Program-made: the position numbers and the translations under genes | Shown here: in pieces, positions 6,344 to 9,961 of the stretch | Layout: the number at the start of each line of letters is the position of its first letter | Numbering within the stretch: the first letter of the stretch is position 1 | From: Escherichia coli | GTDB lineage: Bacteria > Pseudomonadota > Gammaproteobacteria > Enterobacterales > Enterobacteriaceae | Reading direction: 5' to 3' (one strand) | Assembly: GCF_003334355.1 (NCBI RefSeq) | Contig: NZ_QOWP01000002.1 | Length of the DNA: 64,000 nucleotides | The notes under the pieces: generated by a model | Told to the model about the DNA's origin: nothing | Database searches by the model: none | What the model saw: only the letters and a program-made list of their open reading frames with translations

Positions 6344-7342
6344 TTATTTCTTGCTGAATTCAGCCAGGTTGTCTTTATCTACGCCAACATAAGGTACGCG
6401 GACCACTTTGTTGTCGATTTTCCAGTTGGTGCCATCAGCCGCACCTTTGCCATCGGCCAGGTTTTTCGCCAGATCAAAGGTCGCTTTCGCCTGGTTGTTA
6501 GCATCGTTCAGTACGGTGCCCGCCAGTGCACCGGATTTCACCAGCGCCAGCGCTTCTGGCAGCGCATCGACGCCAAACACCGGAATGCTGGACTTGTTGT
6601 GTGCTTTCAGTGCTTCTACCGCGCCCATTGCCATCGCATCGTTGTTGGCGATAACCACTTCGATTTTGTTGGCGTTCGGGCCAGACAGCCAGGCGTCCAT
6701 CTTATCTTTCGCCTGAGCGGTATCCCACATAGCGGTATCTAACTGTAACTGTTCAGTTTTAATGCCTTTGTCGTTCAGCTCTTTAATCACGTAAGTGGTA
6801 CGTGCTTCTGCATCCGGATGGCCCGGTTCACCTTTCAGCAATACGAATTGAATCTGACCGTCTTTGTTCAGATCCCAACCCTGATTCGCCGCCCAGTGTT
6901 TAGCAATCAAATCGCCCTGAATAATGCCGGACTCTTTGGAATCAGTGCCAACGTAGTAGGCTTTGTCGTAGCTATCCAGCGCCTTACGAGACGGTTCTTT
7001 GTTGAAGAAAACCACCGGCACGTTTTGCCCACGCGCTTTCTCAATCACCGTACCCGCAGCTGCCGGGTCAACCAGGTTGATTGCCAGTGCCTTCACCCCT
7101 TTCGCCAGCAATACGTCGATCTGATCGTTCTGCTTGGACTGGTCATTCTGAGAATCATTCATCAGCAGCTGAACATCTGGCGCGGCTTTCGCATCTTGCT
7201 CAATAGCCTTGCGCACTACAGACATAAAGTTATCGTCGTACTTATAGATTGTTACACCAATGCGAGTATCAGCAGCGTGTGCAGCGGCACCGAATAACAT
7301 GCTGGCCATCACAGCAGACAGGGTTAACACCTTCTTATTCAT
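6344..7342 (-). CDS. mglB: Periplasmic D-galactose/D-glucose-binding protein MglB
   Basis: 332-aa ORF with N-terminal signal peptide [23 protein letters not shown]; first gene of mglBAC. Confidence 0.93.
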
Positions 7343-7593: not shown

Positions 7594-7609
7594 TGTGAAA
7601 TCACTCACA
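7594..7609. promoter_or_regulatory. CRP-binding site (TGTGA-N6-TCACA) in the mglB upstream region
   Basis: Perfect tgtgaaatcactcaca, about 250 bp upstream of the mglB start codon. Confidence 0.7.
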
Positions 7610-7611
7610 GA

Positions 7612-7627
7612 TTGAAAGCGGTTACAT
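7612..7627. promoter_or_regulatory. Putative GalR/GalS operator adjacent to the CRP site (mgl operator), overlapping the galS stop codon
   Basis: ttgaaagcggttacat resembles gal operators (GTGGTAGCGGTTACAT-like); my recollection of the consensus is approximate. Confidence 0.55.
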
Positions 7628-8662
7628 CGCCTGATTTGTTGAGTTAGTGATCGCCGCCGCATTCTGGCGCGTTGCGACAGAATGGCGACGCACTAACGTC
7701 GGCATAAAACAGTGGCTGGCACGAGGATCAATATTGCCTGCTGCCCCCTGCAAGGCCAGTTCGGTGGCTAATTTAGCCATTGAAGCAATGGGATAACGCA
7801 CGGTCGTTAATTGCGGGTCGGTGTAACGGGCGATGGGAATATCATCGAAACCGATGATTGAGAGATGTAACGGAATCGCAATGCCATTATCTTTTAATGC
7901 TGTCAGTGCGCCAGCGGCCATATTGTCGTTATAAGCAAATACAGCGGTAAGTTGTAGATTGCGCCCCAGCAGTTCAACCATCGCCGCCTCACCGCCCGGC
8001 ATGTCCGGCGTACCAGTGCCAATCCAGCTTTCCGGCGGAATAATATCCTGCTCTTTCAACGCACTCATCCAGCCTGCTTTACGCATGGCGTCATCTTCAA
8101 TGCCGTGACTGGAAGAAAGATAACCAATACGTTGATGACCGTTATTCAGCAACATGCGCGTCGCCATTCGGGCACCGCTGAGATTATCCAGGCAAACGCA
8201 ACGATGGGCGTACCCCGGCACAACGCGGTTGATTAACACCATACCGGGAATGTTATCCATAAATTGCGCCAGTTCATCGTCACTCAATGCTTTTGAGTGA
8301 ACAATCAACGCATTACAACGCTGGCGAATTAACACCTCAATGGCGTGACGCTCTTTTTCCGCTTCATGATAGCTATTGCCGATTAGCACGTATTTCTGAT
8401 GCTGCTGAGCGACTAGATCCACCGCTTTTACCAGCGCGCCGAAAAACGCATCAGAAACGTCCATCACCACCACGCCAATGGTGTCGCTAACCTGAGTTGC
8501 CAGCGCCTGGGCATTGGCGTTTGGCCGATAATCCAGCTCACTCACGGCTTTCATTACTGCTTCACGCGTGTCGGCACTGACCAGCGTGCTGTTATTGAGC
8601 ACCCGGGAAACCGTTGCCACAGAGACGCCAGCCTGACGCGCTACATCACGAATGGTGATCAT
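7622..8662 (-). CDS. galS: Galactose isorepressor GalS (LacI/GalR family)
   Basis: N-terminal [27 protein letters not shown]; ATG at 8662 chosen for the 346-aa product (ORF track extends to 8668). Confidence 0.92.
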
Positions 8663-8738
8663 ATTCACTACCTGTTATGAGATTGCAGTAAATGACTGCT
8701 TGCTGGCGGCTATTTTGTCAGCACTGAATACAGGACTT

Positions 8739-8754
8739 CGTGAATCGAGTCACA
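8739..8754. promoter_or_regulatory. CRP-like site upstream of galS
   Basis: cgtgaatcgagtcaca matches TGTGA-N6-TCACA at 9 of 10 positions. Confidence 0.55.
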
Positions 8755-8757
8755 GCA

Positions 8758-8773
8758 ATGGAAACGGTTACAG
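8758..8773. promoter_or_regulatory. Putative GalR/GalS operator in the galS promoter (autoregulation)
   Basis: atggaaacggttacag is operator-like and part of a palindrome aaacgg-N6-ccgttt. Confidence 0.45.
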
Positions 8774-8803
8774 CCGTTTTGTTAACGAATGTGATCCAGA
8801 TCG

Positions 8804-9961
8804 TTATCTTGATGTTTTAGATATTGCCGGTCCGGCAGCACGCAAAGTTAACTGACGCCAGAGCCATTCCACCGGCCCCTGGCGGAAGAAACGCAGCCAG
8901 ATAACAGAGAAGAGGATATTCGCCAGCCATACCGGAATAACAAACGCCAGCAGCTCCAGGCGGTCAAAATGCATAAACAAACCGAGGTGGTAAAAAAGCG
9001 TGGTACAAATCAGCGTTTGCAATAGATAGTTGGTCAGCGCCATCCGTCCGACGCAGGCGATCGCAAGCACCAGCTTAAAGCGGCTCAATTGCGGCCAGAA
9101 ACCATAAAACAGCGACGCATAGCCTATCGCCTGAAACGGCGCACTCAGTTCCCGCGGCATCTGAAGTAAGAAGGCGCACCAGCGATATGCCCAGTCCAGC
9201 CGCCATTGCAGGGCGATGGCAGGAAGGTTAATGATCACCCCAATCGCCACCAGCACAAAACCAGTACGACGATAGTGACGTAAGCTGAACTGCCCTTTCA
9301 GCCAGCCACTGCGCATCAATGCGGCACCAATGAGCATCATCCCAGCCAGTTGCCAGCCATACTGTGCGCCCAGTGCCAGTAAACTGTTGCCAACACCATC
9401 GGCACGATTACTGATCGCATCAACGCCGCCGTGAAGCTTCCAGTATTTTTCATACAAAATAGCCGATGCATCCGGCGTCCAGGCGCGGCTGGTCTGGCTA
9501 TCGGAAATCAACCCCAATAACAGCAAAACGCCAAGCCCCACCAGATAAAGCATGACGCCTGTATTAAACAGGCTTTTTACCGATGGCGCATCGCGCACCA
9601 GCCGCCAGCAGATTAAGCCCACCAGCCCGTAAGCCAGCAGAATATCGCCGTCCCAGAACAGTAAACCGTGAATAAAGCCCAACAAGACTAACAGCGTTAA
9701 CCGCGACTGGATCCAGCGTCTGCCACGGGGCAGCAACATTTGCAGGCCCGCACCAAACAGCAGCGCAAAAAGCGTGAGGAATTTCACCTGGCCGACGAGA
9801 TCAAGAAATGCCCAAGTCCATGCATCCTGCGGCGTAATAGCGCCGTACCAGGCGGGATTAAGATAAGCCGCCTTTGGTAGCCCAAAGGCGCTGATGTTTA
9901 ATAGCAGGATCCCCAGAATGGCGACGCCGCGAACAAAATCGAGCGTGACGTTGCGCTCCAT
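8804..9961 (-). CDS. yeiB: Inner membrane protein YeiB (DUF418 family)
   Basis: 385-aa polytopic membrane ORF immediately downstream of folE on the same strand. Confidence 0.85.
   Translation of the reverse strand: MERNVTLDFVRGVAILGILLLNISAFGLPKAAYLNPAWYGAITPQDAWTWAFLDLVGQVKFLTLFALLFGAGLQMLLPRGRRWIQSRLTLLVLLGFIHGLLFWDGDILLAYGLVGLICWRLVRDAPSVKSLFNTGVMLYLVGLGVLLLLGLISDSQTSRAWTPDASAILYEKYWKLHGGVDAISNRADGVGNSLLALGAQYGWQLAGMMLIGAALMRSGWLKGQFSLRHYRRTGFVLVAIGVIINLPAIALQWRLDWAYRWCAFLLQMPRELSAPFQAIGYASLFYGFWPQLSRFKLVLAIACVGRMALTNYLLQTLICTTLFYHLGLFMHFDRLELLAFVIPVWLANILFSVIWLRFFRQGPVEWLWRQLTLRAAGPAISKTSR

Follow-up and report, generated by a model that had tools for sequence, protein, structure and literature searches.

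A CRP site beside a GalR/GalS operator at the galS promoter of Escherichia coli, with a candidate distal CRP site

In this study, we analysed a stretch of 64,000 nucleotides of the Escherichia coli chromosome (hereafter the window, meaning the whole stretch) and focused on the region upstream of galS. It is almost certain that this region is a sigma-70 galS promoter that is activated by CRP at -42.5, repressed by GalS/GalR at -61.5 and negatively autoregulated. The element corresponds to galS control sites that have already been described, namely a CRP site beside a GalR/GalS operator, and as such it is already known. Its re-identification concerns a textbook element, and it illustrates that real regulatory sites are recognisable from sequence alone. 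CRP activation combined with GalS/GalR autoregulation of galS constitutes the incoherent feed-forward loop of the galactose network. An earlier note on this DNA had placed a CRP-like string at 8739-8754, an operator-like string at 8758-8773 and a palindrome at 8762-8779, and all three strings were present exactly at these positions. The functional reading of the first two was borne out by the evidence presented below, and the palindrome requires a different interpretation.

The window is gene-for-gene colinear with the chromosome of E. coli K-12 MG1655 (mglBAC-galS-yeiB-folE). Based on the RefSeq annotation of an identical E. coli strain and of MG1655, the gene order along the window is mglC-mglA-mglB-galS-yeiB-folE-yeiG-cirA, and the MG1655 coordinate of a gene equals its window coordinate plus 2233006. 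Both the list of open reading frames and the RefSeq annotation place the coding sequence of galS, which encodes the galactose isorepressor GalS, on the minus strand at 7622-8662, with its ATG at 8662. The stop codon of yeiB (TAA, 8806-8804) lies on the same (minus) strand, and the 141-bp spacer downstream of yeiB and upstream of galS (8663-8803) holds both the CRP site and the operator. These sites are located 77-111 bp upstream of the galS ATG, in agreement with the location upstream of galS that the earlier note had given them. Sequence identity to MG1655 was 100% across the yeiB-galS spacer (8640-8830). A 401-bp query around the sites had one match in each of the complete E. coli genomes (5426/5426), with yeiB and galS annotated, and its identity was at least 99% in 4575 genomes and 95-99% in the remaining 851. 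In 5391 of the 5426 genomes, the promoter region (8700-8812) was present once, with an identity of at least 99%. An Rfam search of positions 8400-9100 on both strands, with E-values up to 1, gave no match. For the analysis of conservation, we used 80 GalS loci from other Enterobacteriaceae (one genome per species, approximately 25 genera, 81-99% protein identity), and alignment counts were made over 81 loci or 79 unique sequences.

The mRNA of galS (mglD) has been reported to start at -42 from the start codon (table in PMC2763269). This corresponds to an A on the minus strand at 8704, 42 nt before the ATG, and a start at 8704 also fits the published operator position of -61.5 (PMC9189660). Upstream of it, an extended -10 element, TGaCAAAAT, could be read from the sequence on the minus strand at 8712-8720; we infer this assignment, and the hexamer CAAAAT (8712-8717) is weak. 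The element was kept as CTGmCArAAT among the 79 unique loci, with 6/9 columns invariant. A sigma-70 scan that required a -35/-10 pair found none at the galS promoter and there is no recognisable -35, which is expected for a class II CRP promoter. The stretch between the CRP site and the -10 element is unconstrained, as its mean top-base frequency (0.59) is close to that of galS third codon positions (0.65).

A promoter/terminator scan revealed no terminator-like site between yeiB and galS on the minus strand; its only hit of this type was a weak one on the plus strand at 8696-8709, which is the wrong strand for yeiB. As no terminator-like structure was recognised on the minus strand along 8663-8803 and the galS transcription start follows the yeiB stop codon by only 100 bp, folE-yeiB transcription may read through the galS promoter. 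An entry in the S1 Table of PMC5957442 ('2239831 - yeiB, folE') was considered as a start site at the yeiB stop codon and rejected, because the value marks where the unit ends on the left, as is also the case in the mglBAC row. For minus-strand units in this table (mglBAC and folE-yeiB), the 'start site' column holds the left (3') end and is not readable as a list of starts.

The CRP site at 8739-8754 has the sequence CGTGAATCGAGTCACA (TGTGACTCGATTCACG on the galS strand), is part of a 22-bp site at 8736-8757 and agrees with TGTGA-N6-TCACA at 9/10 specified positions. Counted from the published start, its centre (8746.5) falls at -42.5, which differs by one base from the canonical -41.5. Both pentamers of TGTGA-N6-TCACG were 100% invariant over the 81 loci, and 0/6 columns of the N6 spacer were invariant, with a mean top-base frequency of 0.58 (79 unique loci). 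Thus, the assignment of 8739-8754 as a CRP site is supported by its sequence, its position at -42.5 and its conservation. With a consensus match, a site near -41.5 and no good -35, the galS promoter also appears to fit the definition of a class II CRP promoter. The dependence on cAMP-CRP and the binding of CRP at galS are taken from the literature, at the level of either the locus or the site. Activation of galS by CRP has been described as known and the promoter activity rises with cAMP (PMC2516365), genomic SELEX recovered galS, a CRP target in RegulonDB (PMC3105977), and a 'known CRP site' of galS is visible in Reg-Seq footprints (a 2025-26 reporter-assay preprint). These reports, together with the features of the site itself, support the CRP activation of galS that had been proposed in the earlier note. 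A full-text literature search for the exact string of the CRP site found no paper that prints it, and no printed curated CRP coordinates were found.

The adjoining GalR/GalS operator at 8758-8773, ATGGAAACGGTTACAG (CTGTAACCGTTTCCAT on the galS strand), is centred at 8765.5 and agrees with the gal operator consensus, GTGNAANC.GNTTNCAC, at 10/12 specified positions. Its mismatches are confined to the outermost positions 1 and 16, and positions 3, 5, 9 and 15, which have been reported to be genetically essential in gal operators (PMC5110547), all carry the consensus base. Among the 79 unique loci, 11/16 operator columns were invariant. A peak probe in GalR ChIP-chip experiments was located at MG1655 2241771 and assigned to galS, with ATGGAAACGGTTACA as the inferred site (PMC5110547). 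At the offset of +2233006, this sequence equals positions 8758-8772 of the window and the operator centre equals MG1655 2241771.5. A full-text literature search found the operator core string in PMC5110547 only. In another study, the PgalS site 'BS3' has its natural location at -61.5, and the binding energies of both GalR and GalS were measured, BS3 being the strongest of four tested sites for GalS (PMC9189660). Counted from the start 42 nt before the ATG, the centre of the operator falls exactly at this published position. By its dyad consensus and its position at a gal-regulon promoter, 8758-8773 can be classified as a gal-regulon operator, and repressor occupancy is taken from the literature (GalR ChIP-chip and GalR/GalS binding energies). 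Published operator positions had been set as the test of the operator assignment, and the operator coincides both with the GalR ChIP-chip site (PMC5110547) and with -61.5 (PMC9189660). The proposal that galS is autoregulated by GalS/GalR likewise held, in that both repressors bind the galS operator (PMC9189660) and that a GalR ChIP-chip peak is present (PMC5110547).

Taken one by one, the two motifs are only mildly enriched. The CRP consensus with at most one mismatch occurs at 6 sites in the 64-kb window vs 1.67 expected, and the operator consensus with at most two mismatches occurs at 7 sites vs 3.27 expected. On the other hand, two CRP/operator pairs with centres 18-20 bp apart were found in the window, at the galS and mglB promoters, vs 0.0005 expected (mean of 2000 windows simulated with a first-order Markov model, only one of which had any pair). 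TGTGA-N6-TCACG and the operator nTGTAAnCGnTTnCAn were present in 80/80 loci from other Enterobacteriaceae, and the distance between the centres of the two sites was 19 bp in every locus while the distance to the ATG varied from 84 to 100 bp. Judged from this alignment, the combination of invariant pentamers and operator columns, a free spacer and a fixed distance is what would be expected if two proteins bind functional sites here.

It is possible to propose how the galS promoter works. A cAMP-CRP dimer on TGTGA-N6-TCACG at -42.5 would replace the missing -35 and activate RNA polymerase by a class II mechanism, with the extended -10 (TGaCAAAAT) supplying the rest of the promoter. When D-galactose is absent, a GalS or GalR dimer would bind the 16-bp operator at -61.5, which abuts the 22-bp CRP site. 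Directly upstream of class II CRP is the usual docking place of the polymerase alpha C-terminal domain, which a repressor at -61.5 would occupy, thereby blocking activation. Galactose would then release the repressor. As the layout copies that of galE P1, it is most likely that repression occurs by interference with the alpha subunit and with CRP-dependent activation rather than by exclusion of the polymerase.

Upstream of the operator, we identified a 35-bp block that extends from the yeiB stop codon to the operator (8774-8808). It was nearly invariant over the 81 loci and approximately 25 genera, being conserved like the known sites, with conservation declining over the final codons of yeiB before its stop. 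The operator-proximal part is a conserved linker, rTTAACAAAAyGG (8774-8786, minus strand), with an A-tract at about -79 to -73, at which the alpha C-terminal domain of RNA polymerase could dock. Its mean top-base frequency was 0.93, vs 0.54-0.59 in neighbouring unconstrained promoter stretches and 0.65 at galS third codon positions. The remainder is a CRP-like site, GAATGTGATCCAGATCGTTATC on the plus strand, at 8787-8808 (core 8790-8805), which overlaps the yeiB stop codon (8804-8806). Its centre (8797.5) is located at -93.5 and is 51 bp from that of the proximal CRP site. In this candidate site, one half is a perfect TGTGA, the spacer TC..GA is that of the CRP consensus and the other half, AACGA, is poor (2/5); overall, it matches 15/22 positions of the 22-mer CRP consensus. 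In the 22-mer, 16/22 columns were invariant, and variation was concentrated in the two central bases, at which eight different dinucleotides were observed among the 81 loci; the flanking GATC..GATCACA was otherwise constant, with one substitution in one locus. Such a pattern suggests that a dyad-binding protein acts at 8797.5.

In the Reg-Seq preprint (2025-26), an activator site was reported at about -95 in galSp, the effect of which was strongest in stationary phase, acetate or galactose, and its authors assigned no factor to it. This activator site coincides with the candidate site at -93.5, and the three conditions could all be interpreted as high-cAMP conditions. In addition, the genome-wide CRP motif peaks at -41.5, -61.5 and -93.5 (PMC5957442). 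It is plausible, though somewhat short of probable, that the 35-bp block is the Reg-Seq activator site and is bound by a second cAMP-CRP dimer at -93.5; GalS/GalR would then lie between the two dimers, in the manner of CytR at deoP2.

By the same token, we tentatively propose that galS might be a tandem-CRP (class III-like) promoter, in which a distal CRP occupies a half-consensus site at -93.5 and a LacI-family repressor lies between the two CRP dimers; this proposal extends the main explanation of the promoter. The near invariance of the 35 bp, the central-base variation that fits a dyad-binding protein with the CRP spacer TC..GA, the distance of 51 bp between the CRP-like centres (vs 53 bp at deoP2 in MG1655), the motif peak at -93.5 and the Reg-Seq activator site argue for it. 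However, one half-site is poor, and by sequence alone such sites are common. Invariance also extends to the poor half and to the linker; CRP binding alone does not explain this, and the yeiB stop codon covers only part of it. It should also be mentioned that the Reg-Seq authors left the site without a factor and that every locus checked has yeiB directly upstream, so that a constraint from the 3' end of yeiB is inseparable from a regulatory one. With regard to distant GalS relatives, the matches listed had at least 84% identity in the protein search, and the 50%-cluster representatives had at most 47% identity over their full length, in addition to fragments. Binding of another CRP/FNR-type protein or of some other regulator to the block is less likely. 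Fur-box, DnaA-box, ArcA and second-operator readings of 8774-8808 were also considered, and on comparison by eye they gave poor matches. The block contains two invariant GATC sites, and a literature search for galS and GATC methylation found nothing relevant. The candidate distal CRP site, which ranks with the best-conserved non-coding parts of the locus, offers a concrete candidate, with defined bases, for the activator site that the reporter study left unassigned.

In the earlier note, the operator had been described as part of a palindrome, aaacgg-N6-ccgttt. Positions 8762-8779 (AAACGG-TTACAG-CCGTTT) indeed form an inverted repeat whose two 6-bp arms are perfectly complementary and separated by 6 nt, but as an operator element the palindrome does not stand: its axis lies between 8770 and 8771, 5 bp from the operator dyad axis between 8765 and 8766, and the repeat is not kept in other genera. 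The right arm, ccgttt (8774-8779), is located inside the conserved linker and outside the operator. None of its columns was invariant (0/6), and it varies even within Escherichia (AAATGA and AAACAG). Full 6/6 complementarity was kept in only 27/79 unique loci, with no compensatory changes; where the operator core has changed (e.g., GCGCTT in Citrobacter), the arm did not follow.

It is very unlikely that the palindrome itself is the functional unit, be it as the symmetry that the repressor really recognises or as a hairpin, such as a folE-yeiB terminator. Apart from the perfect repeat, this idea could draw on the predicted RNA fold, with -5.6 kcal/mol on the yeiB/galS strand and -8.4 kcal/mol on the opposite strand (z-scores of -2.3 and -2.5, respectively), and on the lack of any other terminator-like site on the minus strand between yeiB and galS. 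However, the palindrome failed as an intrinsic terminator or a conserved hairpin, as the stem has only 2 G-C pairs and is not followed by a U-run on the sense strand, and as most genera have lost the pairing, in line with the variable outer arm and the uncompensated changes described above. Furthermore, it is the 16-mer centred at 8765/8766, and not the palindrome axis, that agrees with the published consensus, with the positions essential in gal operators and with the site inferred from ChIP-chip (PMC5110547). We concluded that the palindrome is a by-product of the operator core and the conserved adjoining linker, and represents neither the operator symmetry nor a terminator.

The last possibility, that both the CRP and the operator matches are functionless chance resemblances to degenerate consensuses in an AT-rich spacer, could appeal to the 2-4-fold enrichment of each consensus alone and to several single matches inside coding sequence, but it is refuted by the invariance of the constrained positions across approximately 25 genera while the spacers drift and by the occupancy of the galS operator by GalR in vivo (ChIP-chip, PMC5110547), and the fixed-spacing pair at both gal-regulon promoters also speaks against it, leaving it with next to no probability.

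We also noted other CRP-like and operator-like sites in the window. An internal operator-like site, GGGAAACCGTTGCCAC, is present in galS codons 15-20 (8605-8620; centre at about +92.5) with 2 mismatches to the consensus, and it corresponds to a listed GalR site at 2241611-2241626 (ChIP-chip site 2241619) (PMC5110547). This site spans codons of the GalS helix-turn-helix (VATVSR). No extra constraint at its synonymous positions was found outside Escherichia, where other genera have 3-6 mismatches, and because of this synonymous drift the site may owe its resemblance to an operator merely to what galS encodes there. Within the reading frame of mglB, GTGCACCGGATTTCAC at 6526-6541, which is without the central CG, corresponds to the listed GalR operator 'O (mglB)' at 2239532-2239547 (PMC5110547). 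A perfect CRP core, TGTGAATCTTTTCACA, is located at 918-933 in the yeiS-preT spacer, approximately 100 bp upstream of preT (yeiT), and yeiT is among the known CRP targets recovered by genomic SELEX (PMC3105977). In the psuK-fruA spacer, two CRP-like cores with one mismatch each, TTTGAGCAGGCTCACA (26396-26411) and TGTGACGGGATGCACA (26451-26466), lie 55 bp apart upstream of psuK, and this pair is possibly another tandem arrangement.

Comparison with known systems revealed several similarities as well as differences. The galS promoter resembles galE P1, which also has an activator site over the -35 region, a 16-bp GalR/GalS operator approximately 19 bp further upstream and an extended -10. The CRP site of galE P1 lies near -41.5. 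With the 19-bp spacing, the two galS sites are at -42.5 and -61.5, and the external operator OE of galE P1 is at -60.5 (PMC5110547). Unlike the gal operon, galS is transcribed from one promoter only, lacking an overlapping P2, and it encodes one of its own repressors, which results in an autoregulatory circuit. The internal operator also differs, being at about +92.5 in galS vs +53.5 in gal. Since the internal operator of galS is distant and not conserved outside Escherichia, looping of the repressosome type at galS is doubtful.

The second pair in the window, at the mglB promoter, has a layout like that of galS, with a perfect CRP core, TGTGAAATCACTCACA (7594-7609), beside an operator, TTGAAAGCGGTTACAT (7612-7627). 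Its centre-to-centre distance is 18 bp vs 19 bp at galS, and its operator overlaps the galS stop codon. The mglB operator was bound by GalR in ChIP-chip experiments at 2240625 (PMC5110547). Mutations in the mgl operator have been selected in glucose-limited chemostats, and a G-to-T change 3 bp from the galS end is a known adaptive mutation (PMC2763269).

With respect to a possible tandem arrangement, the closest parallel is deoP2 (deoC), where two CRP-type sites are also approximately five helical turns apart (53 bp at deoP2 in MG1655 vs 51 bp at galS). At deoP2, which is a class III CRP promoter, the site of the LacI-family repressor CytR is located between the two CRP sites (PMC5957442), and the galS operator likewise lies between its two CRP-type sites. 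Unlike at deoP2, the distal CRP site at galS is one that we infer. CytR binds cooperatively with CRP, which is not known for GalR or GalS. The placement of the repressor differs as well, in that the galS operator abuts the proximal CRP site, whereas the repressor site of deoP2 lies midway between the two CRP sites.
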